From Ruditapes philippinarum (taxonomy: Eukaryota), in contig NW_026853809.1 in NCBI RefSeq assembly GCF_026571515.1, forward strand, positions 124,001-188,000: a stretch of DNA of 64,000 nt, in the 5' to 3' direction. The translations under genes were made by a program, and so were the position numbers. A model generated the notes under the pieces. That model had not been told where the DNA came from. It ran no database searches and saw nothing but the letters and a program-made list of their open reading frames with translations. Shown here piece after piece: positions 22,799 through 63,479 of this stretch; the stretch's first letter is position 1; each line of letters opens with the position of its first letter.

Positions 22799-25700
22799 AT
22801 GTCAGACGAAGACTCAAGGCCTGTAGTTTATTGTTGCACGATTAAACAGTATCGCGAGGATTATCTTTTACAAAATGCTGATATAAAGTTAATAGTGCTT
22901 ACAATAATCACGCTGAATGATGGTTCATGTAAGTAATTTTGTATATAATTGTGAAAAGTATTATATTAACATACTTCTTACTAATGTACATGGTTTATGT
23001 TATATTTTACCCTGTTTGAGGACACGTGCACTGTTGCAAGATAACTAGACGTTAAGTTTATGCTCTATAAAGCTCTTTCAAAATCATTTTTATTTTGACA
23101 CTTCGAAATTTGTGAAGTTAGCAGTCTAGCAGCCTGGCAGCCTAGCAGCCTAAAGAAAACTAAGGATAGTACAAACATGAAAACCGTCGGAAATGAATCG
23201 GTAGCACATACTTAGACTATTTCACGTCTTATTCCAATATCGCGGTCCTTATTTAAACAAGAGGGCCATAATGGCCCTGAAATCGATCACCTGTATATAG
23301 GTCCCCGGGTCGGGGCCAATTTTAACCCAGCGGCTTTTATTTGAACAAACTTGTTAGATGTTTGAAGATGTTTCATGATAAATATCTAAGCTTTAGCTGT
23401 AGAAGATTTTTTAAGTTTTTACAGAAAAACAATGACCCCCTCTGGGCGGGGGCCAATTTTGTCCCCAAGGGCTTTTATTTGAACAAAATTGGTAGACACT
23501 CACTAGAAGATAGTTCATGCTTAATATCTAAACTCTAGCTCTTTGGGTTTTTTAAAAGAAGATTTTTTAAAGATTTTACTATATACATATAAGGAAAATC
23601 AATGATCCATGGGGCGGGGCCAATTTTATTCCCAAGGGCCCTTATTTGAACAATAAATGGTAGACACCCATTAGAAGATGTTTCATGCTAAATATCTTAG
23701 CTCCAGCTCCTAGGGTTTTTTAAAAGAATTTTTTTAAGTATTTACTATATACATAAAGGGCTGCTAGGCTGCTAACTGCGTCAAAATAAAAAAAACACAA
23801 AGTTCAATATTAATAGATACTGAAATAAGACGTGGAAAGGTCTAAGTATGTGCTACCGATTCATTTCCGACGGTTTTCATATTTGTATTATCCTTAGTTT
23901 TCTTTAGGCTATTAGGCTGCTAGGCTGCCAACTTCAGGCTGCTACGCTGCTACGCTGCCAACTTCACGAACATCATTGATCCATATATCAAGTTTCATAA
24001 AAATATTGTCAGTACTATGTGCATTTATTACGGGATCTATTATTTGATCTATTTTTGCGAACGGATAGACTGACTGGCGGATAGACTGAAAGGAGGGAAA
24101 ACCTAAAGTTCCCTTCAACTTAACCGGCAAGGGGACTAACAAAGTGATTCTAAAATGAAAGTCACATAATGAAAAGGAGAAGAAAGGGTTACTTTTTATT
24201 TCATTTCGTAGGGAAAGTGCTCGAACTTGAAGACAAGGTGTACGCTAGCCAGATAAAAGTTATGTTTACAGACCTGTCTGTATTAGCCAGATATAGGGAA
24301 AACTTGGTCAACCTGAGATGGGCACATACTGCTGCAAATGGTAAGTTGATAACGAAAAGAGTGTTTGACGATGATGTATTTGTCGAGCCAGCCAACGTTA
24401 AATTACACCTTCTTCGACGAAGTTGTCTAAAGTCAATCAGTTTGTACTTTATTTTATACTGTATACAGATCAAACATATATTTAGTTTGTACCTAATTTT
24501 GGCAAATAAAGCTCCAAATCAAACGAAATGTAAAAAATATCTTCTAACCAACCCTGAGGAAATGTTCATTACAGTAATTTTATTGTTAACACATGATTTG
24601 TATTAACTAAAATAACGGTTTTGTTGGTACAATTGCAGGCGTCGATGTCTTTATGAAAGCACTTCGAAAAGATGAGGTAGACATTATTCAATTATAATTT
24701 TGATAATATAGTCACGTTACTAAAATTTATACATGTTTAAAACATGATATACAGTGTAATGTTTCATATTAAACCAACTAGCATATTTAACTGATGTACA
24801 CTTTAAGTGTTTGTTAGCAATATCTGGCGACGTTTTTACGTTTTTTAGTATTTTACGTTTTTTGGTAATTCAAGATGAAATAATTAATAAACTATTGCCG
24901 ATCAATATACTGCATAGTTTAATAAGCCATTTTGGCTGATTTACGTTATCTATATATTTGTATTAGCCTTTCCCAAACTTCAAACTAACAAAGACTCCTG
25001 GAGCCCTGAATGCATCTCAAATAACAGAATATGTTATAGGCCATATTATAGCTTATGAGAGGAAACTATTTGAAGCAAAGGAAGCACAAGACAAGAACAA
25101 ATGGAACAGGTATTTCAAAATAATTATGCCATTTTATGTTATTTAACTATATGAGCCGCGTCACGACAAAACCAACATAATGGGTTTGCGACCAGCATGG
25201 ATCCAGACCAGCCTGCGCATCCGCGGAGTCTGATCAGGATCCATGCTGTTCGCTTATAAACCCTATTACAAGCTATAGAGAAACTGATAGCGAACAGCAA
25301 GGATCCTAATCAGACTGGTCTGGATCCATGCTGGTCGCAAACCCATTATGTTGGTTTTGTCATGACACTGCTCATTTGTTAATGAGATGTTGAAATTTTA
25401 TTTAAACAAGCTGTCTGTACCATTTACAAAATTTATCAGTGATTATTATTTCTCATCAGATTATAAAACAATATGAGTACATCAATAGTAGGAGTTTATT
25501 AACTTCTCATGAAACAAATTTGAGAATACGAGTATGTATTTGATAAGGTACTTATCAAAAACCTGTCACTAAGTATGGTAGACTTATTAACTCACTTTAA
25601 ATCCGATAATGTGTATGTATGTGTACATTTTCATATTTTAGTCTTAGACCTTCTTTTTCGTTAAATTAGAATACCTAAATTTGAACATTTCTGAATGTCT

Positions 25701-28700
25701 ATTTCCCATAAATTGTCTACAATATTTTGTTTATAAACATACTTTCATGTGGACAAAGTGCGTACAGGACAACGACTGACCAAGTCGTACTGTATTCTAT
25801 TTTCCCCAGTTTATATCATTCAATTGTCTTCCTTTCAGTGTCTAACTGTTGCCAACTTTATTTTGTATTTTATGTGGTAAAAAGTCGTTTTCGATGGCAA
25901 GATTAAGCTCTAAAAGGAATGTGGTCTCTAAACTAAAATTCCTTAACAAAAAAGTGAAATATTATATGTGAAACCACCTATCTTTAAATTTAGTAAATTC
26001 GACATATTTTGTTTAAGCTGATCTTTTACAAAATGAATCTGGTAATTAATTGTCATTTTGAAAAAAACAATAACCACTACCAACACCACCAACATCAACA
26101 ATAATTGTACACACAGAAAAAAGCAACAACAAATATTATAACGTCTATTCTTACCTTAAAAATGTACCAATATTTTAACGTATTTTCTTACCTTAACAAA
26201 ATGTACCAGTATTTGAACGTATATTCTTACCTTAACAAAATGTACCAGTATTTTAACGTATATTCTTACCTTAACAAAATGTATCAGTATTTGAACGTAT
26301 ACTCTTACCTTAACAAAATGTACCAATATTTGAACGTATATTCTAACCTTAACAAAATGTACCAATATTTGAACATATATTCGTACCTTAACAAAATGTA
26401 CCAGTATTTGAACGTATACTCTTATCCGTACAAAATGTACCAGTATTTGAACGTATATTCTTACCTTAACAAAATGTACCAATATTTGAACGTATATTCT
26501 TACCTTAACAAAATGTACCAGTATTTTAACGTATACTCTTATCCGTACAAAATGTACCAGTATTTGAACGTATATTCTTACCTTAACAAAATGTACCAGT
26601 ATTTTAACGTATATTCTTATCCGTACAAAATGTACCAGTATTTGAACGTTTATTCCTACCTTAACAAAATGTACCAGTATTTTAACGTATATTCTTATCC
26701 GTACAAAATGTACCAGTATTTGAACGTAATTCTTATCATAACAAAACGTACCAATATTTTAACGTATACTCTCATCCTAACAAAGCGTACCAATATATTT
26801 CTAAACGTTATATTTTCAGAGACATATATACTAACAGTCGCTACATACCATCTCTAACAATAGGAATTCTCGGAATCGGGCAAATTGGACAACATCGTAC
26901 GCAAACTGTTAACTCCATGACATTTTCAGTATATATATTTACATAATTCATATGATAATAATGAAGTTTTGCTTATTTATTTAATGTAACGTTTTTTTAC
27001 AAATAAAGGTACAAATCTATTATAAGATTACTACGAATTAGATAACAGTTTAACTACGAAATATTTTTGATTACAGTTGCCAAAATATGTAAGGGATTCG
27101 GACTCACAGTATGGGGTCTTTCACGAAGGGAATCTTCGCCAGAAAACAGATGTGCATATGTGGACGTATTTAGGTAAAGTCCGCCTGATTCTAAAGAAAA
27201 AATATATTTTATTTAGAAACTATTAATTTAATTAATTTAAAAGTCAATGAAACCCCTAAAATGACAAAACTTTTGAATCTCAAAACCTTTTTTAGAGGTT
27301 GGGTTTTAATGTGGTACAAGCGCAGTATTAGTCTTATGGCGACTTTCTAGCTTTACTGGTGGGGGAAGACCTTAGATGACCCTTCGTGCATTATTTCAGG
27401 CACGAGTGCTTCCAAAGGATTACACATTGACCATATAACCGGAACATCCTTTGCTCCTTTTGCATTTTGGTATAAATTACAGTTATCGTGAATAGGTATT
27501 TTGTATTGTCAATACTATGTTTACATGTGACTACTCTGAAGGCATTTTTCACATACATCACTACTTTCTTCAGGTTATTATCGGTAAACATGCTCTTTGC
27601 GAACATATCAAAATAGGTTAAACCACTTGCTTACTCTTTCTAAAGAAGAAAAAAAAATGATACAATGATTTCTGAAGGTTAAGGAGTCTTTAAAAAGGAT
27701 TATATAAGTATATTGTCATAACTGCTTGATAAATACAATCAATCAATCAAGCAAACAAACACTGAATTCTAGTTGAAATATCAGCAACAGCCTAGAATGG
27801 CTAGTACATCATTGCTGTAAGCTATCTTTACATTATGAACAGGACCACAGAACGACTCAATGATCTGCTAGAAAACTGTGATTATATTTGCAATGTTTTA
27901 CCAAGTACACCAGAGACCAGAGATTTGCTGTCTGGAGATGTGTTGAAAGCCTGCAGCTGTAAGGTATGCTCGTCGATACTTCCAACAATTGTTGAATATA
28001 TTCTATTTTGCTTAAAGCGCCGGAATGTAGCTGGGCCTTTTGCTAGGTGTCCTAATTTTTGTTTACATACAAGAAAAGTTAGCCATGGAGGTATGTCGTT
28101 TGTATTGTTTAAACGTGTTTCAGCAATTAAATGTAACATTGTTGAATATTTTCCATTTTGCTAAAAGCATGAAGTGTGAAAAAGGCTTTTTGCTAGATGT
28201 ACCTTGATTTTTGTCTAAGTTTAAGGTTAGTAAGCCGTAAAGGTTTTGATTAAGTCGACTCAATTGCAAAAAGTAAATAAGACATTTTAACTCGTCAAAC
28301 AAAAAAAAAAACATATCTATTTTTTTTTGTATTTCAGAAAAGTATTTTCATCAATGTTGGACGTGGAGATGTAATTGATGAACAAAGTATTGTCAATGCA
28401 ATAAAGTATGATTCCAATCAGTTTCTTATTTAGTATCTTACTTTTATTTCAGTTCTTTTATCGCTTTAACAACTTGGTAATAGCGTTAACATTGACCAAT
28501 TACTAAGAAAAGTAGATAAATACTGAGCCATAATCTGCTGGGACATTGGCTATCGGTAGGGGACTGGGCCAGTCTGTGCATTTGCGCAATGTAAAGCCAG
28601 ATCAGTTATTGTTTTTACTTTAAAAAATTGAAATCGTGGCCATTCTAAATTCAAAGCATAGCAAATCCATTAAACAAATTAAGTAGGTTAAATTCTAATG

Positions 28701-29660
28701 ATGCAGTAATGTTTTTCAATTGAAACATTCTCGTTGAAAATCGTAAATATTTCTAAACATAATTTCAGGAACGGATGGCTCAGTGGAGCAGTGCTAGATG
28801 TTTTTCGCGAGGAACCGTTGCCTTCTTCTAGCCCCTTTTGGAACCTTCCGGGGGTAATAGTAACGCCACATGTATCCGGTTGGTCAGAAGCTGTATCAGT
28901 ATGTTTAAAATTGCTCTTATTGTTTACTTATTTCATTGTGTTTATCAAGTAACGCAGAAATGTGAAAATAACGTAGGAATTTGTGAAAAAGAAACGCCGT
29001 AGCATTGCACATATATGGCTGTAACGAGTATCTATGGTGGCTGATTTGTGTCATATAGTATTTTCGCTCCGTGATGCTCCGGACGTAAACACAAAAATAT
29101 GACAGTCAACATTTTGTCGTACTTTTGCCACCCTTAAAATACGACATGGTACAAGTCAGCCACCATAAGTATCACGGAAGATTAACGGATAAAAAATATT
29201 TTACATAAATCAAATGAAAAGAATGATATATTTGCACATATTCTACGTTATCAGCAAAATTCATGCATAATTTTGACGGTAAATTTGCATATTTTTGCAT
29301 TTGGTGAAATTTGGTGTTTATTTTATACATACAGAATGATTTTAGCACTTTGATAGTTTTTAAAGGTTGAGATTAAATAACATAAAGGAAGATTTGTGAT
29401 TCATTTGTACTTAAAATATTAAAAACAATCGAAAGTTTTACTTGTTATTTTTTTCAAAATGAAAAAAATAATGAAATATTCAATATCATATTAAAAAATC
29501 AACTAAGTTCAGTAATTTGGAAATGCATTATTATAATTAAGTAATATTTTTCTTTTATTAGTACACCAAGAAGATAACAGACTTCTTTATTGACAATTAC
29601 CAGCGTTACACAGAAGGGTTGCCTTTGAAAGGAGTACTTGATTGGTCACAAGGTTATTGA
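22799..29660 (+). CDS. D-isomer-specific 2-hydroxyacid dehydrogenase (GhrA/glyoxylate-hydroxypyruvate reductase-like), copy 1, 343 aa
   Basis: Exons 22799-22928, 24212-24340, 24639-24676, 24967-25109, 26820-26896, 27077-27173, 27843-27963, 28338-28405, 28769-28898, 29562-29660 (1032 nt, GT-AG). Motifs GILGIGQIG (Rossmann), LPSTPET, FINVGRG (Arg), LDVF.EEPL (Glu), TPHVSG (His), C-terminal GY*. Confidence 0.92.
23112..23967. mobile_element. Inverted-repeat element with TAGCAGCC subrepeats in intron 1 of copy 1
   Basis: The arm at about 23112-23240 is the reverse complement of about 23815-23967 (aaagaaaactaaggata...aaaaccgtcggaaatgaatcggtagcacatacttagac). Confidence 0.8.
23256..23758 (+). mobile_element. 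AACAAGAG-headed element with about 3 internal 140-170-bp satellite units (Helentron/HINE-like; bivalve ~160-bp satellite type)
   Basis: Starts aacaagagggccataatggccct; repeated ggggccaatttt...ttatttgaacaa...ggtaga...aaatatct...agaagatttttt units. Confidence 0.65.
25153..25373. mobile_element. Palindromic MITE, copy 3 (small internal deletion)
   Basis: Same family as 6128-6362 and 11516-11748; lies in intron 4 of dehydrogenase copy 1. Confidence 0.9.
26140..26810. repeat. 39-bp minisatellite, about 17 units
   Basis: Unit aacgtatattcttaccttaacaaaatgtaccagtattt(g/t); explains the repetitive 250-aa and 108-aa ORFs. Confidence 0.95.
27295..27415 (-). mobile_element. Truncated SINE, same family as 38189-38422
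   Basis: Shares gctttactggtgg.ggaagaccttag...cgtgcattatttcagg with 38189-38422. Confidence 0.75.
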
Positions 29661-31276: not shown

Positions 31277-34200
31277 ATGAATATTTACGTAGCAACATTT
31301 TTAGAAAAACTAGGATCCCAACTGGCCTATCTTGTTCCTAAAGAGAACTCTCTGATACATCTAAAATGACAAAACTGACTTCTACACAATGTAAGTTGCT
31401 ATTTTATTACGTTAGACCTATAGAATATTCACATAGTTATTAAGCAAGGATTAATCTTGTTAAGCATACATATGTTATATACATGATTAGATAAAGAAAA
31501 TATTTCTTTAGTTGCATTGACTTTTGTCAGGTTTGGTTACAGGGAATCTTGTCAGGTTTGGGTCACAAGGGACTTTATAAAGTTTAGTTACAGGGGATGT
31601 TGTCAAATTAAGTTGCAGGGAATTTGGTCAGGTTTGGTTACAGATGATTTTGTAAGGTTTGCTTACAGGGGATTTTGTCAGGTTTGGTTACAGGGGATTT
31701 TGTTAGGTTTGGTTACAGGGGATTTTGTCCGGTTTGGTTATTAAGGATTTTGTAAGGTTTGGTTACACATGATTTTGTTAGGTTTGGTTACTGAGGATTT
31801 TGTCAAATTTGGTTCCGGTGGATTTTGTTAGGTTTGGTTACTGTGGATTTTGTCAGGTTTTGTTACTGAGGATTTTGTAAGGTTTGGTAACAGGCAATTT
31901 AATAGTTTGGTTACTGGGATTTTTTTCAGGTTTAGTTGCAGGGGATTTTGCCAGGTTTGGTTATAGATGATTTTGTTAGGCTTGATTACAGGGGATTTTG
32001 TCAAGTTTGGTTACAGGGGATTTTGTCAAATTTTGTAACAAGGGGCTTTTTATCTCTTAATAGCTTATTACATTGAGCACTGTTTTTCTTCAGGTGATTA
32101 TTATCTAAAATACTCTAAATCAATCATTACAACAATTAAAATGACATGCTTACACTTTCTAATAAAGACACGATATACATGTATATAAGTTCTGAGGCTT
32201 AATATGCTATTAAACATTTCTAAACACTTCTTATTAAGAAATAAGTAAGCATATCTACATGCCATTAAAACGGGTGGCAAACGCTTCTATAAGATTCATA
32301 AATAAGATGTGTTAGTTTTTTTTTTATTTATTCTAGATGAAGTTCCTGAGCTTGAAGACAAGGTTTTTGCAAGCAAGATAGAAGTTATGTTTGTAGATAT
32401 ACCAGTGTTAGCAAAATATAGGACGAATCTGGTCAATCTAAAATGGGCACACACCGCATGGAATGGTTCGTCATTTACTTTGTATAACACTTGATGTGAT
32501 GTGTTTCCATTACAGATTCAACTGCGATACTCTGCTAATATATAATCATTTGAAGAAGTAGGAAAAGAATAGCAAGATCTTAAGCAATACCTTTTTAATA
32601 ATAATCTAACTTCGATTTCATATAAAATCTAAACCATAACATAAATATTTCATTTATATCTTTTTATTTTTATAAATGTATCTTTGATAAAATAATGGTA
32701 TTCTTTGTCTTTTCTAATTAAAAAATATTTTATTGTAGAAGAAATTTCCGTCGCGTTTGTGACAGTGTTAGACAATTAATTGATTTCTCATTTCTTCCAG
32801 GAGTGGATATTTTAATGAAAACATTTGAAAAGGATGAGGTAAAAGCTAACATACATTAAGTACATTCCTCATGTAAGCGTTAAATAGCTACAGATTCAGT
32901 GTAAATTTCCAAGCATTCAACATAACAAATACGAATCATGAAAAATACAAAGACCAAAGCAGTAATTATTTTATATTCGTAAGTTGAAAAAACGCTTGTG
33001 TCGTTCCGAACAAATCACTGTTTGCAATCTTCCTTTGGAATTATATGTATACGTTTATTTTTTCAGCCGCTACCAAACTTTATTCTTACTAAAACTCCGG
33101 GCTCCCTGAATGCAGAGCACATTACAGAGTATGTGATCGGTTATATTATAGCCAAAGAGAGGCTTTTCTTCCAAGCCAAGGAGTCGCAGCAAAAGTCTAA
33201 ATGGGAACAGTAAGATTTAGTTTGTTCCTCACATTGTAATTTTATTTTCATATCTAACGCAATCATCAAAACAGAATTATAATTTATATTTTTGCTCAAC
33301 AGAATAAGCTTCTTTTCTTTGAGGATTACTAAATGTTTGTTTCCGAATATTTTTATCTATTTGCCACTCTATGTTTTATGTTATATAGTATTGAATGACC
33401 GACTCCTTATGCCAAGCCTTTGACTTAATCTAACAGTTCTATTTGACACTTTCTGATTGTCTATTTCCTATAAACTGTGTACATTTAAAAGTCGCTTTTA
33501 CCGGAATCGACGAAAAGTATGCCAACCACCATTCAGACGCTCATTAAAGATAAAAGCTTTATTCACATAGGTTAACAATGGGCACATATTCCGTTAACGT
33601 TTTAAATATTCATAAAAATGATAGAAATTTATCAATTGGATAATCTTATGAAATATCCATGGGAAACTAAACCTTAAAGAGGGCTAAAGTTATTAATTGT
33701 GAACATATATATGTTGAAAAATTATATTTTGTTCTACTTTATTATCTGCTATATGTTTTTATGTCATTTAAAACTTTCCAATTACTCAGCAAGATAATTC
33801 GTTTTTTGTTTGTTTTCACGGATGATACTAAGTACTACCAACCTGATTATTTATGGTGTAAGATATCTTCTATAAGACCTAAAGATAGGTAATGCGAGAG
33901 AGTTTCCTTTGCAGAATGATTTATGCTAAAAGTCGAGTCTTGTCCTCTCTAACAATTGGTATTCTAGGTGCAGGAGAAATTGGACTTCATCGTGAGTAGT
34001 AATGCATTGCTTTAACATTAATTTGTTTAAGTTTCCACTCAGCAGAAAATCCCTATTTGCATTAATTTTATATTAAGATTATATTGAATGTTTTTCTGAA
34101 ATGAAATATTTTGTGATCTAAAGACAATAATGGAGGACACAACAATAACATGTGCATGTAACTAAATAATGTATCCTGACAAGGTCCGCAAATGAGATAG

Positions 34201-37200
34201 TAATAATGTTAACATATTTCTTTACTGCACATAAATTTTGAACTATTTTTACAAAACCCTGTTGATATGTTTAAACACATACACCATTTCCTTTACATTG
34301 TTCTATTACAACATAATCAAATGTTCTTTAAGCTGGCATAACTAATCAGTTATAAAAGTTTACACTGTAAAATGTATTTTGAATTTATTCAATTTATGGC
34401 GATATTGTTTTGTTGTTTAAAAGAAAAGAAGATTGTATCCTATGTTTATTTCCACCTTTTGTCTTTTGCCAGTTGCAAAATCATGTAAGGAGTTTAAAAT
34501 GAAAGTATGGGGGTTAACGAGGATGGAACACCCACCAGAAACCCAGAGTCAATACATTGATGTTTATAGGTACTCACTATTTTCTTGCAATGAAAATAAA
34601 TAATACTAATGAGAATAATTTTCTTGAAAATGTTCACTGATTATTAAGTTTCTTTGTCGCTCAGATAGAAAAACATGTGAATATCTCAACCAGGAAATGA
34701 CTGGTATTCTATGAGCACAAAACGTCAAATTTCATTGAATGTGAAAAACAAACTTAATAAATAAGGGCGCCACTTAATAAACGCATTGCTTAACACAACC
34801 CAGCAATACTGGACCACTGGCAAAAAGCCAAGACTGCATGATAATATTTCTACCATTGTGATATTCCAACTGAGTATTATATTACAATATATTAAAGGGA
34901 TATTCAGGCAAAATAATGACAAAAATATCAAAATGATCTTATGTTCTCAAATCACGCTGAAATGACATTTCTGAAAGTTCCAGCATAAATTTTTGTTTAA
35001 AGTCTACATATTTTTGGTTTGAGGCTTAAATATATCCATTTTAATGAACAAAATTTAGACGCCAATAAAATCAACGAATAGTTTTAAAACAAGTCATGTC
35101 ACTAGAATAAACCCTCGAAGTTACAATAAAATATATTGTGGATATTGTAGGATTGAAACAAGTCAAAGTCATTCACTTGACATGTTCTTTAACGTTTCCA
35201 GAGTTCACCGTGACAACTTTTGTGAAATCCTAGTGCTCTAACCTGACCCACGCGGGTCAAGTTAGGAAACCACCATTTTATTTTTTCTACGCAGAAAAGT
35301 TTTGTTCTTTTGACTGTCTAATGTATTAACTTTGGGGGCATTAACAGAATAATGAATGAAAAATCCAAAACTAAGAAATGAAAATTTTGCCTGTGTCTCC
35401 CTTTAAAACACATTCAATGAGAGCAAATGATAAAAGACTTTAGTATGCATAACAATGAAAATTAATAAACTTGAATCATTCCAGGACAACAAATCAACTA
35501 GAGGAATTGCTAGAAAATTGCGATTATATATGTAATATCTTACCAAGCACACTACAGACTAAGGACATGTTGTCTGGTAACATTCTGGAAAATTGCAAAG
35601 CAAAGGTAACAAAAGATGGTCTCAGAAGTTATTTAGCTAACACAATTAACACAATTTTATTTCGATTAAAATATGAAATAAAGAAATACAGAATATGACC
35701 TACATGAAATGAAAAAAAAAATTGTATGTCGAAAAAAAAAAAAAAAAAAACCACAAAAAAAACAAAACAATTAAACATTATAGAATGTTCCATAACGGTC
35801 AGATTGATAATGCAATAAAAATGCACATTACAACAGCGTCAAATAGCATCAATTCAAAAGGGTTGATATGTGTTTATTTGTTTTTTTAAGTGTTGAAATT
35901 TGTTAGGTTTTATAGTCGGGTGTTTTAAAAAAACGCAAGACAATTGTCCTTATCTCGCTCAAATTGTTTTGGTTGTCATTAGAAGGACGAATGAGTTGCA
36001 ATATACGTTTTAATTCTACATTTTCGATTTAAAAGACATCGACTGAATCTGTGCCATATTATCATGTTTTTTCTTCAAATGTCACTTATGTCTGTTCCAA
36101 CCCGCATTTTTATTCAGTGATATGCTTTTAATAAAGAATATACAAACACCGAGATACGTTTGATAGTTGCATGCCAATAAGTTTGTCATTACCTTCATTC
36201 CAGAAAAGTATTTTCATCAATGTTGGACGTGGAGATGTCGTAGATGAAGAAAGCATAATTAAAGCAATTAAGTAAGTTTTCAATTTCCTTCCAAACTTGA
36301 AAAATGATCTTTTCAAAAGTTCTAAAAACTTATTTTGTTTTAAATGATATGTTTTTGCATTTGGATTGAAAATGAGATCAACGAGAGGAATGTGTCGTCC
36401 ATGAACATGTTCTGTTTCACACCTTATAAAAATAACCAATGCTCTTTCAACATCTGCACCACGTGATGTTCCAATAGGACTCATTATTGGATCCAATCTT
36501 ATCAATATTGTTTAATTTTCAACTTCAGAGTCCAAAGAGTCCATATCAGTATCAATACCCTTACAGCCTCGTTTTCATTTCCAGAGTCTAAACTGTTCAT
36601 TTCTTATTCATATCACAACCCATAAACATGTACTAGTAATATTAAAAAACTGAATCCGTAAAGAATGTCCAAGACGACAAAATAAATTGAAAATGTTGAA
36701 GACACGGTTTGATTTAGCTTGTTCATGGACGGTACTGGAAAATGCAATTTAGCGTGTACGCCCCTAGCACCGGTTTAAGCATAATTAAAAATCTAAATAT
36801 GTAAAATGTAAAATTCAGTGTTGTACTCAACAATGTGTAATAAGCTTAAACTATCACACCTGCAACATTTTTGATTTGGCCAATGTGTATGCATAAGTCG
36901 TCAATAAAACCAGCGGTATTCTTTTAAGTATACCGTACACATTTTTAAACATGTCATGTTAAACAGAAACGTCTCATCGTTATAAATTATTTAGAACATC
37001 AAGAACATCTTAACATTTTGTCCGCCGGATTAGCTCAATAGAGGGGGGCATTAGATTAATATTCCAAGTATCGTTAGGGTGTGGTTTAATTTCTCAAACA
37101 AAGAATCGTATATTCATTAAAGTAATTAGTAAATGATGACGATAAAGATACGTTACCTAGTGAGAAGAATGTTTAATCAATTAGTATTGTATGTGTCAGA

Positions 37201-37938
37201 TTGAGACCCAGTTTAATGATAAACTGGATTTCATTGTCTTCTTTAAATTAGTGCACAGAAATAATGTAACTATGCCAAATTACTTTTATGCTTTTTATCT
37301 GTCTCTGTTTGTCTTTTTATCATTGATGAAATCAAACTACATTGATCGCTTTTATTTGCCTTTTAACATATATTAGCAAGCGTCTTTTAATCTCTAGACG
37401 CAATGTAAGCCAATTTGTTATTATCTTCAGTAATGGATGGCTAGGTGGAGCAGTCTTAGATGTATTCCATGAAGAACCATTGCCTTCTTCAAGTCCCCTG
37501 TGGAACCTCCGAGGAGTTATTGTGACCCCACATGTTTCCGGCTGGTCCTCAGATGGTTCCGTGAGTAGATTAAAACGCATCGTATGATACTGTTATCGGT
37601 CTTTTTAAACATAATTTGTTTATCATGAATGAATGTATTGAATACATTAGGAAAGATTCTGTATTTCAATTATAAAAAGAATAATTTTTAAGAACAAGAT
37701 TTGGGTTGGGTAAACGTCTGTTTGATGAAATTTTTTCATCCAAAATCTATTTTCTAATATGTCAAACATTTAGTTTCATTCTAATGTAACATTATGAATA
37801 GTTTATAAATTTGTTTTTGCTTAATTTTCGCTAATTTAGCATATCAGCAATCTGTTGGCATGTTTTGTGGACAACTTAAACCGTTATGTGACAGGACAGC
37901 CATTAAAAGGGACTCTAGATTGGTCACAAGGATATTAA
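31277..37938 (+). CDS. 2-hydroxyacid dehydrogenase copy 2; exon 1 has an apparent 1-bp frameshift (pseudogene allele or assembly error)
   Basis: Exons 31277-31390, 32337-32465, 32801-32838, 33067-33209, 33915-33991, 34473-34569, 35485-35605, 36204-36271, 37431-37560, 37840-37938. Exons 2-10 are intact with the same sizes as copy 1. Exon 1 hits TGA at 31367 unless one A is added to the run at 31363-31366. Confidence 0.85.
31517..32045. repeat. About 25-bp minisatellite (ggattttgtcaggtttggttacagg) in intron 1 of copy 2
   Basis: About 20 degenerate units visible. Confidence 0.9.
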
Positions 37939-38188
37939 TAAATAGACATATGTGCTTATTGCTTGTAAATAAAACACTGCTAACGTTAGTAAAACTTCAC
38001 TGTTGACAATGAAAAGCAAATTATTTATAATGCTTCATTATTCAATGAAAAGCGATCTTTGTGCTCAGTTGAAACCAAATCATCAGCGACTTCCTCTCCT
38101 TTGTGCGAAAGTGGTTATTAAAGTGGTATTTCCTGTCAAGTTGTGTTGAGGTAGCAATCTATTTCTAAAGATTGGCTTAAAGAAGAGT

Positions 38189-38422
38189 TTTTTTTTTGGG
38201 TGTTACGTCACATCGACACAGTATAGGTCATATCGCGACGTTCCAGCTTTACTGGTGGAGGAAGACCTTAGGTACCCCTCCGTGCATTATTTCAGGTACG
38301 AACGGGCAGCTGAGTAGAACCACCGACGTTCCGTAAGCTAACTGGATAGCTTCCTCACATGAAAGAATCCAGAGTCCCTGTCGGGATTCGAACCCACAGC
38401 GATAAGGGGCAAGTGGTTTAAA
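38189..38422 (-). mobile_element. tRNA-derived SINE (mollusc Meta-SINE-like)
   Basis: The minus strand reads B box GGTTCGAATCC, then ...GTGGTTCTACTC...CCTGAAATAATGCACGGAGGG...TCTTCCTCCACCAGTAAAGCTGG; further copies at about 27295-27415 and 52550-52780. Confidence 0.8.
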
Positions 38423-38771
38423 GAATTGTGATTGCCAAATAATTGACAACGAAACAATATATAAAGTATCTACATTTAAAAAAATCAGCCCACTCTTTTT
38501 AAGAATTCAGCGTTACAGATAAAATTCTGAACGATATTTTTAAACAATTATGTTGATCACGTGGAATATTGAGTAATTTTTCATAGTAAAATAAAAATTT
38601 GAACACAGGTATATGTCACAATGTTAACTTGTTATTTTTTCAATTGTTCACTGACCATTTACACTTGGAAGGGCATAATGACACTTTAAACTTACATGTG
38701 TATCTGTAATTAATTGTAAATTAATTGATATTTAAAATGCATTGTTTTATTTCATTGGCAATGTATGTTAA

Positions 38772-38987
38772 CCGCCTCCGTGGTCGAGGGGTTAGAGTCG
38801 ATGACTTCTAATCCAGTTACCTCTCTGGCGTGGGTTCGATCCCCGGGAGATGCTTTGGTAGTTTAGCGCGGAGGAAGGTAGTCTAGTACTGGTGTAACTC
38901 TCCAGGAACGATGGTTAGGAAACTACCCGCCTATATGACTGAAATACTGTTGAAAAGGGCGTAAAATGAAACAAACAAACAAACAAA
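38772..38987 (+). mobile_element. tRNA-derived SINE with (AAAC)n tail
   Basis: A-box-like GTGGTCGAGGGG, B box GGTTCGATCC, 3' tatgactgaaatactgttgaaaa.ggcgtaaa then aaac repeats; absent from the paralogous flank near 47400-47450. Confidence 0.8.
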
Positions 38988-39735
38988 TGTAATTAAAAAC
39001 TGGTATGAACTGTTTATTTTTTTTCGGAAATAATCATTTATGTTGATTTTCTTATTTCGATAATATATAACATTTTATATTATAAATATAGTCTTGTAAA
39101 TACGAGTAATTACATAAACATTGTAGACTAATACGACGCCGAAGTAAACATAAATTTTCAAGGCAAATATTATGAACTATTTCCCCCAGAGTTGATTTAA
39201 TATGTTAAAGGAGATTTTGTCAATTTTAGTTACGGGAATTTGCCAGATTGGTTAAAAAGTATTTTGTAGGTTAATTGGACCAATTTGACAAACTAAATGA
39301 AGCAAACAATTACACACATATACACGTCCATTGTCGAAAAGTCTTTAAAAGAAGATAATAAATATACAAAGCATGATAAGCATGATTTACAAACTAGCAA
39401 AAATGTTGTTTGTACAATATGTAGATTATATAAACGTGATAAACGACTACAAACATGCAATATTGCATGCATGAGTATTAAATACATTTATATGGCACAT
39501 CAATCTGCGTTTTATGAGAATAAAGGTGTTTGAGTAAACTCATTGCATTTGAATAGAGGTCAGAAAAAAAATTGCAATCACACATTTATGTGAATGTACA
39601 TTGTATATTTTGTAAAATAGATCGAAACAATGTGAAATGCATTATAAGTGTCGGGATATTAATTAACAATAAATATGCAAGGTAGTCCCATTTAATTCAG
39701 CGACATGTCTTTATTATATGTAAACACAATTGAAC

Positions 39736-39856
39736 ATGGCGCATGTGTATGTTGCTAGTGAATGGGTGGAAAATATAGGAAAAATGATAAAAAATGTAGC
39801 CAAGTTTAAGGTTACTGTGTTAAACCTGTTTTCAAAAGTTGGTGGCGAATATGCAG
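39736..39856 (+). CDS. Alternative first coding exon (1a) of dehydrogenase copy 3
   Basis: aacATGG start, open 40 codons MAHVYVASEWVENIGKMIKNVAKFKVTVLNLFSKVGGEYA, strong CAG|GTAAT donor in phase 1, matching exon 2. Homologous to the other first exons (VYV.S...E.IG). Confidence 0.7.
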
Positions 39857-40362
39857 GTAATCGTTTTGAAAAAAAATCTTTTAAACGCTAACATATACAT
39901 GTAAATAGTGATTTATAATTTGCATTGGTATAGCATGAATATTGTAACATTTGATTGTAAGTATTTTTTTTATCAAATTATAGATGAAATACTTATATAC
40001 ATATATTTACATTATTTTCACTGGTGTCTTTGATGCCTACTTTCTTCAAAATTCAACCAATACTTAAGAAATGAGAAATAAAATGGGAAGCAGTTCTGAG
40101 ATAAAATTGGCGTTCAAATAACTTATAATGATTTAAAACTTACACGTTCAATGCATTTCACATTGTTATTAGATAATGTGACACTATTTTGTCGCAAGCA
40201 CGCACACCACGTTCTGAGTCGTGTATTTCCATACTGATGCATCAATACATTCATAACATACATGTATTCAATAACCAGAGGTTACGAAGCATTATATGAC
40301 CATCTATTAATTGCAAACCTGATGCTCGATATACTGGATGTTATTTAAGGAGATTATTAATA

Positions 40363-43300
40363 ATGGACAGTACAGTAATTTACATCTCAACATTTTTTGA
40401 AAATATTAAAAAGGAAATTGCAGACTCTGTCCCAAAGGATACAACGCTTGTTTTCCTAAAAACCATAAAGTTTCATCTACTTAAGTGTAAGTATTATGTT
40501 ATGTTATATAATTTTTCTGAAGAAGGCATATTGAATTTTTGCGTAAAAAATTTTGACCAAAAATGTGCAATATATGAAAAATGTCATTTTTAAAAAGACA
40601 TCATAAATGAAATTTTATGTCATGTAATTTTGTAATAGAGAACTCTTCAATATCAATAAAAATATTGGAGTTGGCACAAATTTTGCAAAATTACATAAAA
40701 TTTTATTGCTTGTCATAACCAAAGGAATCAACCTACCTCGTCTGCAATGTTTGACTCCGGCTTGATTAGGAGAATGTGCTTAGAACTAAGAAACGTGATA
40801 TCTGTTGAGTGTTGACTCGATTATCAATGTACATCAGAAAATTTAATTTACCTCAAGATGAGATATAATATATTTTATTCGTTAGACGCAATCTCTTGGT
40901 TTATATTAGATTCAGATGCATATATTTGATATGAAAATAGTGTGTTTATTACCCTTTTTGCCTTGTGAACGAATGAAATAATTTCATATTTTGTTGAATG
41001 TGTCAAAATATGCAAAATAACCATTAATACATAAGTTAAAGGACAAAATTGCCATGTAACTTATAAATTTAATCTTATCTTATAATAAATACAGAGCAAT
41101 AAAGTATCGTATAAAGCATAACATTAATGTGATTATGAATATATCCCTTAAGAGCCCGTTACATTTAGCACTACTTTCTTCAGGTGATTATTATCTAAAA
41201 TACTCTAAACAATATATAGATCACATGTTTGCTCTTTCTGACGAAGAAAAGATATCCTTGTAAATAAGTTCTGAGGCTTAATATGCTATTAAACAATTCT
41301 AAACACTCTTTATTTAGAAATAAGTTAGCATATCTACTTGACATTAAAACGGGTGACAAACTATGACATTCATAAATCAAATACGATTTTTTTGTAAATA
41401 AGTGTTTTTTTTATCTATTCTAGATGAAGTTCCTGAGCTGGAAGACAAGGTTTTTGCAAGCAAGATAGAAGTTATGTTTGTAGATTTACCAGTGTTAGCA
41501 AAATACAGGAAGAATCTGGTTAATCTAAAATGGGCACACACCGCATGGAATGGTTCGTCATTTATTTTATAACAACTAATGTGTGTCCATAATAGATTCA
41601 ACTGTGATACTCTGCTTATTTATAATCTTTTGAAGAAGGAGGAAAAGAATAAAAGAGAACTTTTTAAATATTCGTCTTCGACTTCATATAATTACACAGT
41701 TAAAACCATGAGATAAATATTTCATTTGTATATTTGCACCCTCAATAAGTAAATCTTTGATAAAATAATGGTAGTATTTGCCTTATTCTTATTTGCATTT
41801 CAAATACATCTTATTGCGAAAGAAATTTTTATCGCATGTGGGTCAATTAATTAAGTTATCATGTCTTACAGGAGTGGATATTCTAATGAAAACATTTGAA
41901 AAGGATGAGGTAAAAGTTTACATACATACAAACATTAAGTAAATTTCCTAGAATTAAAAGGTTAAATAGCTACAGATTCAGAGTGAATTTCTAAGCATTT
42001 AACTTAACAGTTATATAAGCCAATTACTGTGGTAACAAATCATGTTAAATAAAAAGACCAAACCAGTGAATAATTGTATATTCGTAAGTTGAAAACGGTT
42101 GTGTCGTCCTGAACAAATCACTGTTTGTTAGCATCATGAAATTATAACGCTTCGTTTATTTTTTCAGCCCCTACCAAACTTTATTCTTACTAAAACTCCT
42201 GGCTCCCTGAATGCAGAACACATTACAGAGTATGTGATCGGTTATATCATAGCCAAAGAGAGGCTTTTTTTCCAAGCAAGGAAGTCGCAGCAAAAGTCTA
42301 AATGGGAACAGTAAGATTTAGTTTTTTCCTCACATTTTAATTGTTTGTTCCCCACGCAATCATCAAAACAGAATTATAATTTTGCGCAACAGATCACGTT
42401 TCTTTTTACTAAATGTACATTTCCGAATATTTCGATCCTTCTATTGTCACACTATACATCCATGCTATATGTTACATAGTATTTGATGACCAGTTGCTTA
42501 TGATTTATGATATGTCTTTGGTTAAAATACTGTGCAATGAGTTGTTCTATATTTAAAACTTTCTGACTGTCTATTTCCTATTAACTGTGTACATTTAAAT
42601 GTCATTACCATCCGAATTTACGAAAAGTATGCTTACCATTAAACAATTCAGACGCTCATTAAAGATAAAAGATTTACATAGACTTAATCGTTTTAGTTTA
42701 GTTAAACGCGATAGAGTGTTAAAGTGTTTTGTTTTGTGAACATATATATGTTGAATAATAATAATACTTTTTTCTATCTGCCGTACATTTATATGTCATA
42801 TCGGATCAGGTGTTTAACACTTCCAAATAATCCAACAAGATAATTCTTTATTGATTTGATTTTACAGATGATACTAAGTACTACATGCTTGCTTATTTAT
42901 GGTATAAGATATCTACCACTATAGATAGGTAATGCAAGAGTGTTTATTTTGCAGAATGATTTATGCTCAAAGTCGAGTCTTGTCTTCTCTAACAATTGGT
43001 ATTCTAGGTGCAGGAGAAATTGGACTTCATCGTAAGTATCAATGCATTGCTTCAACATTAGTGTTTAAGTTTCCAGAAAATCCCTATTTGCATTAATTTT
43101 AAGATTATATTGAATGTTTTTCTGAAATGAACTATTTTGTGATCTAAAGTCAGTAATGACTGACACAACAATAATATGTACATGCAACTAAATAATGTAT
43201 CCTGACACAATGTCCACTAATGAGATAATAATTAATAAGTGAAAGAACATCGTAACACGAGGTTTTCTGATTTGTACGAGAGGGCGTAGCCCCCGAGTAT

Positions 43301-46300
43301 TAATCAGATTGCAGGGTGTTTTGATTTCATTCTCTTTTGTATCATAGTCAAATCTAAAAACACATTCCCTGTTGTCACAATATGAAACCCCAGAAAAGTA
43401 ACCAATGGACGAGCATCTGAATATGATATTCTATCGTTTTCCCTTTCCCTGCCGTCACAATAAGTAAACACCAGCAAAAATGATAATTTCAACGGGCATG
43501 CTCTGGAGTGCGGATAACTTATACCCTCACTTCAGTTAACGCATTGTACATGTATATGTATACGATTTAACTCCGACTCATTTTCAACAGAAAGGTCCCC
43601 AAACTATGATACAAAGTTAAAATATTTCTTTATTGCAAATTTTAACTTTAATTTAAAAAAATCTGGACAAAATTTGATCCCTCAGAAGCATTAATCACAA
43701 CAAAATTACATGAAAATTGCAGACTCGGTTTGATTAAGACTGTACATAAGGGATAATGAAAAATGGTAACCTTCCTCACGCCCCTAAAGCTGGCTTGAGC
43801 GGCATTGAATTTTCATCACTTAAAAGTGTTGAAATCAACCCTGTTTGTATGGTTAAAACACATATACAATTTTCCTTTAAATTGTTATATTACAACATGA
43901 CCAAATGTTCTATAAGCTGGCATTTCTCATCAGTTATAAACGTTTACAAGAGTTTTGAGTTTTTATAATCAATATATTTTGAATGTATTAAATTTAAGGT
44001 GATATTTTGTTGTTGTTTGAAGAAAAGTAGATTGTTTCCTATGTCTATTTTTGCCTTTTGTTTATTGCCAGTTGCAAAATCATGTAAGGAGTTTAAAATG
44101 AAAGTATGGGGGTTAACGAGGAGGGAACACCCACCAGAAACCCGGAGTCAATACATTGATGTCTATAGGTAATTACTGCTTGCTTTCAATGAAAATAAAT
44201 AATACAATGAGAATCATTTTCTTGGAAATGTTCACTGATTGTTCAAAGGTTTTGGAAATTTCTTGATCGTTCAGATACAATTTAAATGTGAATATGTCGA
44301 CCAGAAAAAACGCTGGTATTCTAATTGCACAAAACTTCAAATTTCATTGAATATGAAAAAATATAATCAAGAAGGAAGGACTGCACTTAAAGCGTCGCCC
44401 ATCACTACCAACCAACACTGGACCACCGGCAAGAAGCCAAGACTGTATGGTTAATATTTCTACCGGGTCATATATATATGTGTGATAATCCAACTTAGTA
44501 TTATAATTATAACAATATATTAAAACCCATTCAATGAGAGCAAATGATAAAGGACTTTAGAGTCCATAACGATTAAAACTAATAAAAAATATAAAATATA
44601 AATAAAATATAACTTGTATCATTCCAGGACAACAAATCAACTTGAGGAATTGCTAGAAAATTGTGATTACATATGTAACATCTTACCAAGCACACCACAG
44701 ACTAAGGACATGTTGTCCGGTAACGTTCTGGAAAACTGCAAAGCAAAGGTAACAAAAGATGCTCTCTAACTAGATTTTGTATCAAACAAATTATGAAATA
44801 CAGAAATACAGAATGTCCTATATGTAATGAATGAACCAGATTGTATGTTGAAAACAAAAACAGTAAAAAATGTTCCATGGCTTACAGATTGATATACACC
44901 AAGCGTTCTCATTACTGTATCGTCAAAATAGCATAACTTAAAAAGGGTTGATATTTATTTATATGGTTTACTGGTGGCTTGGGCTTGTCGGGGGCTGCGT
45001 CCTGTGAAAGTTGCCTTTGCCTTGTTGATCTCTATTCTCGTTTTTTATATGTGTTAACAATTGGTAGGTCAGTTTTACAGTCGTATGTTTTCAGAAAACT
45101 CAAGACATTTGTCCTGATGTCGCTTAAAAAGTTTTAAATAATAAGATAACATTACATGTATCATAGGAAGGACCAATTTGTTACAATATACGTTTGAATT
45201 CATTCTACACTTTCGATTTTGAAGACATCGTCTGAGTCAACAGTGTCATAATATAAAAATGTCTTTTCTCCAAATGTCACTTTAGTCCGTTCCAATTTGT
45301 AATCAGTAATATACTTTTATTAAAATATTCCCAAATGCATACGAAATACGTTTGATAGTTGCCTGCTGATATGTTTGTCAATTATTTCATTTCAGAAAAG
45401 TGTTTTCATCAATGTTGGACGTGGAGATGTCGTAGATGAAGAAAGCATAGTTAAAGCAATTAAGTAAGTTTTCAATTTCCTTTATTAAAACAATGAGTTT
45501 TTCGAAAATAGATTATGTATAGTTCTGAAAACGTGTTGGTAATATCTGATCTGTTTATATTTTTAAATTGATAATAAGATCAATAAAGGGCTGTATCGCC
45601 ATATCGTCCATGAACATGTTTTATTTCACACTTTATGTAATATAACCGATGTACTTTCAACATTTGCAGCACGTGATGTTTCAATATAAATCATAATTGG
45701 GTACAATTTTATCAGCATCCTCTGAGTCGAAACAGCCCATACCAAATCAATATCACACCCTTTACAGCCTTGTTTTCATTTCCAGAGTCCGAAAGGTTCA
45801 TATTTAATCTAAATCACACCTCATACGAATACGCCTCGTCTAATATAGTTTTGACGGTTATGTAATCGTCCACTAGAATTCAGTGTTGTTCTCAACATTC
45901 TATAATAACCTTATAATATCAAACTTGCAACATTTCGATTTGGCCATGTTGTATGATAGTATAGTTGGTCGATAGAACCAGCGGATTTTTTAAAAAATAT
46001 TATATACATTTTTATACCTGTCATGTTAAACAGAAACGTTTCATCGAGAAGTATTATTTAGAACGTCAAGAACTTTTCAACATTTGTCCGACGGATTAAA
46101 TAGAGGGAACATCGTATTATTATTCCAAGGAATGCTAAGGTTAGGTTTAATTTTTCCGTGGCATTGATCTCGGCGATTGAATTTTAATACACCTAAACAA
46201 TGAATCTTATATAAATTAAAGTAATTAGTAAATGACAACGATAAAGAAATAAAAAATGGATACTTTATCTAGAGAGAAGAATGTATACTAGTAATCAATC

Positions 46301-47160
46301 AGTATTATATGAGTCATATTGAGACCCGGTTAAATGATAAACTGATTTCAATGTCTTTTTCAAATGAGTGCTTAGAAATATTTTATCTATGCCACATTGT
46401 TATCATCCTTTTTATCTATCGCTGTTTTTCTTTTTATTATTGATGAAATATGATAAACAAGATCAACAAGGAAAGGCAACCCCCACCCGACCCAGTAACA
46501 AGAGCCAGTGCCAAGGAGCCCAGGAGGACCAAAAAATCGAGCTACATTGATCGCTTTTGAACATTGTTTTGCTTTGACTTTTAACATATATTTGCAAATG
46601 TCTTTAAATCGCTGAACGGAATGTAAGCCAATGCGTTCTTATCTTCAGTAACGGATGGTTAGGTGGAGCAGTCTTAGATGTATTCCATGAAGAACCATTG
46701 CCTTCTTCAAGTTCCCTCTGGAACCTCCCAGGAGTTATTGTGACCCCACATGTTTCCGGTTGGTCCTCAGATGGTTCCGTGAGTAGATTTAAACGCATCG
46801 TATGATACTGTTTTCGTTTTGTTAAAGACAAGATACCATTACTGATATTTCTAATTCATTTGAAAATATACTGTATTTCAGTTACAAAATATAGTAATTG
46901 TGACAAATCATAATAAACAAAATTTGTTTTGGTTAAATGTCTGTTTGATAAAATTCTTTTGCCCTTAAACTATTTTCTTATAGTCAAATACTTAGTTTCT
47001 TTCTAATGTAACATAATGTAGAGTTCATAAAATTGTTCTTTCTTTATTTTCGCTAATATAGCATACCAGCAATCTGTTGGCATGTTTTGTGGACAACTTA
47101 AATCGATATGTGACGGGACAGCCTTTAAAGGGGGCACTAGATTGGTCACAGGGATATTAA
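40363..47160 (+). CDS. 2-hydroxyacid dehydrogenase copy 3 (intact; 341 aa with exon 1b)
   Basis: Exons 40363-40486, 41424-41552, 41872-41909, 42168-42310, 42955-43031, 44072-44168, 44628-44748, 45396-45463, 46649-46778, 47062-47160. GAGEIG, NVGRG, EEP and TPHVSG are intact. Confidence 0.92.
43230..43612 (-). mobile_element. Interspersed element inserted in intron 5 of copy 3, absent in copy 2
   Basis: The copy 2 intron reads aatgagatagtaat-aatgttaacatatttcttta without it. Homologous to 5435-5780; has a subterminal GAGGGCGTAGCCCCCGAG hairpin. Confidence 0.8.
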
Positions 47161-48009
47161 TAAATGGACTTATGTGCTCACTGATTTGAAGTAAAACACT
47201 GTTAACCTTAGTAATACTCCACTGCTGACAATGCAAAGCAAATGATTTATATTGCTATATGTTTCAACCCATTGGACAACAAAATCAAGAGCGGCTTCAT
47301 CTCTGTTCAACAATATTGATTTTTACATTTTACTGTGCATGTATTTTCCAAACCGTTACATATCAGCAATTTATCGATAAATTATTAGGAATGTATTGTT
47401 TTTTCCAAATTTACCACTGACTTTGTATGTAATATTTTATTTAAAACTGGTCTGTACTGCAATTTTTTCATCTGTATGGGTGTTCATTTTTTTTAAACTT
47501 CAATACCATATAATGTTTTATATAATAATCGTGTAAATTTGAGTAATAATATAAACATTGTAGGCTAATATCAGGCTAAAGTAATCATACATTTTCAAGG
47601 GCTTACATTATTTACTATAACCCTCAGAGTTGATCTAATATTTATATTATTATACCGTGCATAATCTAGTAAAACAGTCATTAGAAAAAAAACTGCGTGG
47701 CTTATCTTTAAGTTCAAATTATTTTACAATTTGGCATTGATGGAGGGATTTTTTTGCAACTTGTGAAAACAAAATTTCTCAAAGAATTTTATTATATTGA
47801 AGCAATATCTTTACTGTAAAGCGACATTCTTGTGTACAGTTATTGACGTCATATATCGTTAGCTTTTGATGGCGGTGAATTGCCTGCTTATGTCGTTGTT
47901 TGCATATATCACAGAAAAAATAACAATATTTGAACATGTTACAATATAATTCCCTGCCATTTCAAAATCCTGTATGTTGTTATTAAGGTTGTTACCAAAT
48001 TTAAGTGAA

Positions 48010-62206: not shown

Positions 62207-62238
<32 letters not shown>

Positions 62239-62474: not shown

Positions 62475-63479
62475 GTAGATTTACTTAATTATTTACATAT
62501 TTAGTAATCATTCTTGAACCCTGCACTCAACCTCGATTTCTACCTATTAAGTTCAAACAGCTGCTTTTTATTATTCTAGTGTTCTTTGTTAACAATTACT
62601 GATTATAAATTTACCCACAACTATTTACCTTAAGGGCAAAATACTTGTGTAACATATTCTAGGCTCTATCAACTTAAGTAAATGATCATCTCTAGCGAAA
62701 TATCTGTACTTAATTAATTAAGATATAAAAAACAGTTATACAAAACAATGCACCGTCATTTAATGATACATGAAAGCTTATATATACATGACTACAATGG
62801 CTGGCATTGAAAAATTTGACAAAATTGATATTGCTGCATGCACAGTTTGATTGAGCCTGTTCATTGACAGAACTCGAAAATGCAAGTTACCGTCCAAGAC
62901 TCCTAGCACCGGCTTCAGCAGAATCCAACATTTAAACAAGAAAATGGATTTTTTGTTGTGATAAGTACTTCCGAAAGGAACACCCTTCTTCCAGATATCT
63001 ATAAAACAGCAGGTGTCAAGTGCCGTGTGGCAGCAGTAAAAAGTTCCCCCGTACTTCACTTCAGTATTGTTATATTTTCTGGTCCTTCGGGATAATTTAT
63101 TCCAGTGTTTTAAGTGTTGAAAATTGATTACCGCTCAAGACGGTTCTAGGAGGCGTGATGGATGTTGCACTTTTTTCATTATCCCACTTGTACAGACTCA
63201 ATCCATTTGTGTCTTCAATTTCCATGTGATTTTTACTTTATATTGTTAAGTAAATTTATTTGCATACCAAGATTGAAAGACAAACTGAATTTTTAGATAT
63301 ATGTAACCGTTCAGATACAACTATATGTGTATATATCGGCACACAATCTCGCAGACTGTACTATAAATATTTCGCCCGAGTTATACACGATATTAGACTT
63401 TCTAAATATTTTTTTGTAACAATATCAAGCCCATAAAATGAATACAAAGTGATAAAAGTCTCAGGTATGCAAAAACATA

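Follow-up and report, generated by a model that had tools for sequence, protein, structure and literature searches.

Can one dehydrogenase body be served by interchangeable first coding exons? The question is raised by a locus of the clam Ruditapes philippinarum in which an earlier note saw two ATG-initiated exons before a shared exon 2, and proposed that four such exons (hereafter heads) could be spliced across gene copies onto three bodies. Here, we analyse this locus within its window, a 64-kb stretch of DNA, and favor, with fair rather than firm confidence, the reading that copy 3 is one gene with two homologous tandem first coding exons, 1a and 1b, that likely yields two functional isoforms differing only in their first ~40 residues. 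We also describe a history of apparent body-only duplication at copy 2, which the earlier note did not contain.

Layout of the locus

The window is AT-rich, contains no N, and holds a cluster of three tandem ten-exon genes, all on the + strand (Table 1). Exons 2-10 have identical lengths (129, 38, 143, 77, 97, 121, 68, 130, and 99 nt) and identical phases in all three copies. At copy 3, the coordinates and translations first assigned to the two heads were right, and their spacing, put at about 500 bp, measures 506 nt. Exon 1a spans 121 nt (40 codons + 1; donor CAG/GTAATC) and exon 1b 124 nt (41 codons + 1; donor AGT/GTAAGT). Either one, joined to copy-3 exons 2-10 (to 47160), gives a stop-free frame of 340 aa (1a) or 341 aa (1b); equal phase and a frame open into the shared exons are what is expected of tandem first exons.

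Table 1. Coordinates of the heads, bodies, and repeats in the window
Feature	Position	Strand	Remarks
Head of copy 1 (type C)	22799..22928	+	43 codons, phase-1 donor; on its own body in Logan protein P0004
Copy 1 exons 2-10	24212..29660	+	Old paralog, 69% aa identity to body 3
Head of copy 2 (type B, older paralog of 1b)	31277..31390	+	Frame broken in this sequence
25-bp minisatellite, 21.2 copies	31522..32050		Ends at left edge of copy-2 tract
Copy 2, apparent body-only duplicate	32051..39203	+	7153 bp; exons 2-10 at 32337-37938
Remnant of 25-bp minisatellite	39204..39268		Begins one base after tract; only other copy in window
Inverted 26-bp pair flanking exon 1a	39626-39651 / 40142-40167 (span 39626..40167)		18 bp exact
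First exon 1a (head type A)	39736..39856	+	40 codons, phase-1 donor; probably the lesser-used alternative
First exon 1b (head type B)	40363..40486	+	41 codons, phase-1 donor; form found in transcript contigs
Segment homologous to copy-2 tract	41142..47641	+	No minisatellite at either edge; putative donor
Copy 3 exon 2, common to both heads	41424..41552	+	129 nt, phase 1-1
Copy 3 exons 3-10	41872..47160	+	Body with catalytic and NAD(P)-binding parts
Copy 3 exons 3-6	41872-41909, 42168-42310, 42955-43031, 44072-44168	+
Copy 3 exons 7-10	44628-44748, 45396-45463, 46649-46778, 47062-47160	+
Decayed exon-7 remnant, fourth copy	63437..63605	+

Both donors are phase 1 as claimed, but the strength also attributed to them holds for 1a alone: on a matrix built from 24 internal body donors (range 4.2-10.4), 1a scores 5.5 and 1b -0.2. 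The weaker-scoring donor is thus that of 1b, yet 1b is the head found in transcript contigs. A motif said to unite 1a and 1b is present and weak by itself, the protein similarity between the two being borderline (local score 26, reached by 96 and 49 of 1000 shuffles), and at the DNA level the two exons cannot be aligned. The + strand of the window contains 14 arrangements that run from an ATG to a phase-1 donor through 36-60 open codons, three of which are heads. Because such arrangements are this frequent and the likeness of 1a to 1b is borderline, the exon-like shape of 1a proves little; we take 1a as real because it is homologous to the N-terminus of a clam relative and appears in an NCBI protein. 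RNA structure around 1a is nothing unusual (z -1.44), and no head beyond the four known was found within the 64-kb window.

The two remaining heads needed correction. That of copy 1 is phase 1 as reported, with its start at 22799 rather than at the first ATG (22782). That of copy 2 had been called phase 1 once a frameshift is corrected, and a break does lie at a short A-run; as read, the 114-nt head is in phase 0 and meets a stop at codon 31. Apart from this break, every forward join of the four heads to the three bodies is in frame, as the claim of phase compatibility had it.

Head types and their relatives

Each of the heads matches the N-terminus of a clam relative, consistent with homologous elements that occupy the same structural slot. 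Head 1 groups with Mercenaria P0003 (z 13.9) and Logan P0004 as type C, and 1b and head 2 group with Mercenaria P0002 (z 15.9 and 13.0) as type B. Exon 1a, type A, finds its best match among 202 relatives in the head of Mactra P0005 (score 44, z 5.8, equalled by 0 of 1000 shuffles), with an unrelated protein, P0130, close behind (41 vs 44). This modest match supports 1a as a genuine N-terminus of the family more firmly than it supports orthology. Exon 1a is not a young copy of 1b.

Copy 1 differs from P0004 at 8 of 43 head residues and 2 of 299 body residues. In a tree of the bodies, body 1, P0004, and Mercenaria P0003 group with support 74/76, and bodies 2 and 3 with P0002 were held together at p-AU 0.053; the tree leaves the co-descent of heads and bodies undecided. 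Homogenising of bodies species by species was considered and not adopted, since the tree does not separate these groupings clearly.

Searches for further homologs added little. Exon 4 used alone gave no match, the 50% representative sequences held no further close clam sequence, and the ESM Atlas returned only short unnamed matches to 1a. A metagenome scan found 80 loci at 31-54% identity, which play no part in the analysis. Mercenaria P0002 is itself named 'isoform X4' and belongs to a cluster of 8 sequences, at most a lead as to whether other species share the layout.

Transcript evidence for the two heads

We compared four runs with positions 22550-42500: contigs of runs X1 and X2, taken as RNA by guess, and raw RNA-seq of X21 and X23, each sampled at ~4-6%. 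Since repeats dominated the junction rows, the 1b junction was deduced from contig coordinates. In X1, record 3 (1150 nt) reaches exon 4 at its position 263, so that 95 letters remain for a head, and the depth in the 1b bin amounts to 94.96-95.08 letters at this record's depth once one listed intronic record is removed. Exons 9 and 10 stand at their predicted offsets in the same record (769 and 899), and 16 of 19 listed differences of X1 from copy 2 carry the letters of copy 3. In X2, record 13 covers 40351-40486, its match ends at 40486, and it continues for 47 nt, while record 11 starts at exon-2 position 18. Head 1b is therefore joined to the copy-3 body in contigs of two runs. Of the two copy-3 junctions proposed earlier as a check, the one from 40486 to 41424 is thus supported by contig coordinates, and that from 39856 to 41424 is given by an NCBI model, with no junction read among the joints listed for the four runs, all of which are repeats.

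That model, P0001, bears the NCBI name 'isoform X2 [Ruditapes philippinarum]'. It is identical to the 1a form over residues 17-340, junction Asp included, and so places the 1a junction already on record in the NCBI annotation. Isoform labels of this sort rest on RNA alignments. P0001 is the firmest sign of 1a use, and 1a is likely a minor alternative. The protein begins at the second Met of 1a (Met17) and lacks beta1 and the beta1-alpha1 loop; this late start is a genuine difficulty, whether it stems from sparse reads at the 5' end or from transcripts that do not encode beta1. In run X2 the 1a bin sums to ~790 depth x bases and a fork appears at exon-2 position 17, a hint that fits a second head; because X2 shows intronic cover elsewhere too, the 1a-bin signal may be DNA or pre-mRNA. 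In X21, ~127 bases fall in the 1a bin vs ~673 in the 1b bin. Neither X1 nor X23 covers the 1a bin, and X23 has no cover on any head or on copy 3. No start-site peaks show in the four runs.

These data bear on whether 1a is an orphan head, left behind when a paralog lost its body, with a leaky promoter sending a few transcripts to exon 2 that were modelled as isoform X2 and yield no useful enzyme. The start of the model at Met17, the lack of 1a cover in two of four runs, and the lack of a 1a junction among the listed joints would all be expected of an orphan. So would the birth and death visible in the cluster, where head 2 is broken and a fourth copy has decayed, and the observation that types B and C head genes of their own here and, by their NCBI names, in Mercenaria. 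Against it, no remnant of a body lies between 1a and 1b, and 1a is intact, its residues 1-10 still Mactra-like. In simulations that assume 1a was already bodiless when copy 2 arose, a neutral 1a has stayed intact since that duplication in 6% of cases (15% at half the indel rate, 42% without indels). Together with the history of copy 2 described below, this leaves an orphan 1a unlikely, while still the most serious rival to a gene with two working heads.

The combinatorial proposal of the earlier note, in which four heads would be spliced across copies onto three bodies, draws on the in-frame joins and on the exon lengths and phases common to all bodies. The transcripts point elsewhere: no cross-copy joint is found among those listed for the four runs, P0004 and the X1 and X2 contigs carry heads on their own bodies, and the head-2 bins are 0 in X1, X2, and X23. 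A cross-copy transcript would moreover have to traverse a whole gene and its 3' end. We regard such splicing as very improbable, and a large combinatorial system is not indicated by our findings.

Enzyme family and predicted effect of a head swap

The product is a D-2-hydroxyacid dehydrogenase (2HADH), as PF02826 scores P0001 at 161.7 bits vs a cut-off of 25.1. By the feature set of PMC6303947, the Arg/Glu/His triad, the x-Gly carboxylate loop, and the dinucleotide loop GILGAGEIG all lie in the body. The curated NCBIfam cut-offs, which belong to prokaryotic models, are missed (GhrA 110.4 vs 403, GhrB 120.3 vs 492, and Dhydh_Halo 160.8 vs 400 bits), and the substrate therefore cannot be taken from the database name 'glyoxylate/hydroxypyruvate reductase-like'. 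Membership in the GHRA subfamily was rejected: besides the missed cut-off, the fingerprint [ST]R[ST]X[RK] and the Trp of the beta3-alpha3 loop are absent, body 3 having TRREH and FVDLP where the predicted structure places them. The closest solved relatives by profile and fold are Aeromonas 3hg7, Haloferax DDH 5mh5/5mh6 (Foldseek ranks 2-3), and bacterial GhrA, at 22-29% identity.

Structure models were made of stand-ins, Mactra P0005 for the 1a form and Mercenaria P0002 for the 1b form. In both, beta1, alpha1, and beta2 are predicted to lie inside the head (residues 3-33 and 4-31; mean pLDDT 94), in agreement with the view that the N-terminus forms the first strand, helix, and strand of the substrate-binding domain. 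Up to eight regions can contact the C2 substituent, the beta1-alpha1 loop among them, and Arg14 of this loop points to the active site in Haloferax DDH; PMC6303947 describes general rules of specificity in the family as unsettled. It is plausible that a head swap would shift 2-keto-acid preference, and the altered loop would likely tune that preference rather than switch it; most pocket regions belong to the constant body.

The reading we favor then runs as follows. Transcription of each head would begin at a promoter of its own, as no acceptor is demonstrably in use for either, and the phase-1 donor of the head would be spliced to exon 2; the two open frames and the 1b form are observed, and the promoters and the use of 1a in vivo are inferred. 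The head would supply beta1-alpha1-beta2, so that a swap would alter the beta1-alpha1 loop, and perhaps the kinetics with it, but not touch the catalytic triad, the carboxylate-binding loop, or the cofactor site. Control by tissue or stage is the other likely gain from having two heads.

Probable origin of copy 2 within a minisatellite

The copy-2 tract is flanked on both sides by one minisatellite. Its right-hand remnant matches the array at E 1.9e-7 (score 73 vs a mean of 17.4, sd 3.4, over 1264 windows), the next unrelated match standing at E 0.09. The two halves are ~10 nt out of register, and the tract edges show no target-site duplication. With the tract removed, the donor of head 2 comes to lie 1193 bp upstream of the 1a ATG. 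The simplest reading is that a body copy was inserted into one minisatellite array.

Bodies 2 and 3 are 95% alike as proteins and share their introns, in which the copies show 12-19% mismatch in aligned bases and 153 gaps. Between the bodies pS is 0.14 (29/202.8), vs 0.61 (12.5/20.7) between head 2 and 1b (Fisher p=1.4e-5); by these sequence differences, the head of copy 2 is judged far older than its body. This age gap and the minisatellite flanks are both observed, and because of them we consider it likely that three heads once stood before one body and that head 2 was later given a body of its own. In this history head 2, 1a, and 1b would have lain within ~1.9 kb upstream of one body, until a 6.5-kb body-only copy entered the minisatellite downstream of head 2, turning that head into a separate gene. 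Tandem duplication followed by deletion also fits the flanks and begins from the same three heads. The flanks do not date the arrival of 1a next to 1b. They bear on an orphan 1a all the same, since they put a bodiless head 2 at 1.2 kb before 1a, so that shared bodies would have existed anyway.

An assembly artefact, in which merged haplotypes or paralogs mimic the tandem layout, is the least credible of the alternatives. In its favor, only about half of the sampled words are shared by DNA runs carrying the region, and the break of head 2 lies at an A-run. But the intron divergence of copies 2 and 3 given above, the sharp tract edges within one minisatellite, the absence of N, and the failure of 1a and 1b to align as DNA are all at odds with it.

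Copy 2 appears to have worked for some time as a gene. Its line took at most 11 replacements vs ~50 expected under neutrality, so both copy 2 and head 2 were likely functional after the duplication, and dN/dS between bodies 2 and 3 is 0.14. Copy 2 was thus likely under selection for most of the time since it arose, as far as these substitution counts tell. It seems to be decaying now: nine of 13 polarised changes fall on its side, some at conserved sites, a skew that fits recent decay. Exon 4 as expressed in X1 and X2 is copy-2-like, with one difference from copy 2 where copies 2 and 3 differ at seven sites. Either gene conversion or chimeric contigs could explain this, and the case for selection on copy 2 is weaker for it.

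Significance and comparison with known systems

If both forms are made, copy 3 offers a natural domain-swap experiment, with two enzymes that differ over 40 residues only, a stretch containing one substrate-pocket loop, and it would carry alternative first coding exons on a metabolic enzyme into bivalves. The locus also provides a readable snapshot of an alternative exon turning into its own gene through body-only duplication. Its main value lies in this passage from three heads to two genes and in the clean biochemical test that the two isoforms offer.

A wider and more doubtful extension, to which we give slightly less credence than to an orphan 1a, is that an ancient array of swappable beta1-alpha1-beta2 modules (A, B, and C) has been retained for one dehydrogenase in venerid and related clams. 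Such modules would confer 2-keto-acid preferences tissue by tissue, the heads would evolve much faster than the body, and body-only duplications breaking in intron 1 would sometimes make separate genes. Were this true, the cluster would be a miniature invertebrate UGT1A caught resolving into paralogs.

The parallel that the earlier note drew with UGT1A and protocadherins is overstated. According to PMC1885805, the UGT1A, GCNT2, UGT2A, and clustered protocadherin genes have variable first exons before constant exons and undergo birth and death of heads, features they have in common with the clam locus, and in UGT1A-type enzymes the variable part likewise borders the substrate pocket. The UGT1A, GCNT2, and UGT2A clusters are there called vertebrate-specific. 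As the same article describes them, however, clusters of this type hold three to >12 variable exons, each large and coding for an entire acceptor-binding or extracellular region, and their promoters have been demonstrated. The clam gene, unrelated by descent, has two 40-codon heads with one pocket loop: a head of ~40 aa supplies one of up to eight specificity regions in place of a whole substrate-recognition domain, and the copy-3 constant region has two variable exons now (three inferred earlier) where the class has at least three. The gene is UGT1A-like in layout and outside that class by exon size and number.

Tandem duplicated alternative first coding exons are a class already known, and this gene is a probable further case. 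Martinez Gomez 2021 (PMC8373072) counts 39 N-terminal events among 236 human tandem exon duplication events, and these too are homologous tandem 5' coding exons used one at a time from alternative promoters; here the setting is a bivalve and a 2-hydroxyacid dehydrogenase, and the word 'dehydrogenase' is absent from the main text of that article. In agreement with the earlier note, a literature search that reached mostly open-access articles found no paper describing the layout in this enzyme family or in bivalves. CtBP2/RIBEYE (PMC9907507) is likewise a gene of the 2-hydroxyacid dehydrogenase family in which alternative starts alter the N-terminus, but as described there RIBEYE adds an unrelated 572-residue extension and does not swap homologous core elements. 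Chelicerate sDscam genes (PMC4835542) likewise carry tandem 5' cassettes with alternative promoters in an invertebrate, but these form large receptor arrays, not enzymes. The proposed history of copy 2 resembles the separation of splice isoforms after duplication in PGM1/PGM5, RNF128, and CALU (PMC4494069, PMC9741552), where an alternative exon becomes the sole form of a paralog and one copy, as in PGM1, can retain both exons. In the cases described there whole genes duplicate and then lose exons, whereas here the body alone was seemingly copied into an array of heads, and the scars can still be read.

Heads and bodies of the tandem copies

Comparing the first coding exon (head) and the remaining exons (body) of copy 1, the first of three tandem D-2-hydroxyacid dehydrogenase genes, with the copy-1-like Logan protein P0004, we found that 8 of 43 head residues differ, as against 2 of 299 in the body (Fisher p=1.3e-6). 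Either heads would be far more variable than bodies even among near-identical forms, or P0004 would carry a second head of the copy-1 type (type C).

In transcript contigs from two runs exon 4 is copy-2-like and the remaining message copy-3-like, which would reflect either chimeric contigs or gene conversion from one body to another. Copy 2 itself looks to be in decay, since its head frame is broken, conserved sites are altered, and coverage of its head is absent in three of four runs. Part of a fourth copy, including pieces of intron, survives as a scrambled remnant, in which, by eye, exon 9 seems to start at the window end.

Repeats and neighboring features

Exon 1a, the first of the two copy-3 heads, is flanked by an inverted pair that has no further copies in the window and ranks top of its type among 181 windows compared, having been chosen post hoc. 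One possibility is a shared promoter element, another a pair of transposon ends; folding of the RNA there revealed nothing unusual. The high-copy repeats in copy-1 introns are an element with 168-bp units and long inverted ends, a palindromic element that recurs at 6118 and 11511, and a minisatellite with a 39-bp unit. A small multi-exon gene looks calmodulin/EF-hand-like by eye, and a Pfam search with one of its exons alone returned no match.

Coordinates of features in the window
Feature	Position	Details
Small multi-exon gene	about 12219-17882	by-eye inspection
Inverted duplicate	20588-21201, 21957-22569	615 bp; 93% identity; directly upstream of copy 1
Copy-1 head	22799-22928	
High-copy repeats, copy-1 introns	23109-23970, 25145-25377, 26140-26796	three elements
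Copy 2	31277-37938	
Exon 4, copy 2	33067-33209	
Exon 4, copy 3	42168-42310	
Inverted pair around exon 1a	39626-39651, 40142-40167	26 bp; 18 bp exact
Fourth-copy remnant	61880-64000	exon 7, intron pieces, exon 9 start (by eye)
Exon 7 of remnant	about 63490-63600	

Signs in other bivalves

The Mercenaria relative P0002 is named 'isoform X4' and belongs to a cluster of eight sequences; this may conceal alternative heads in a second venerid clam. In Mya, P0008 ('isoform X2') lacks a segment equal to the symmetric exon 2, which suggests that intron 1 lies at the same position there as in Ruditapes philippinarum.
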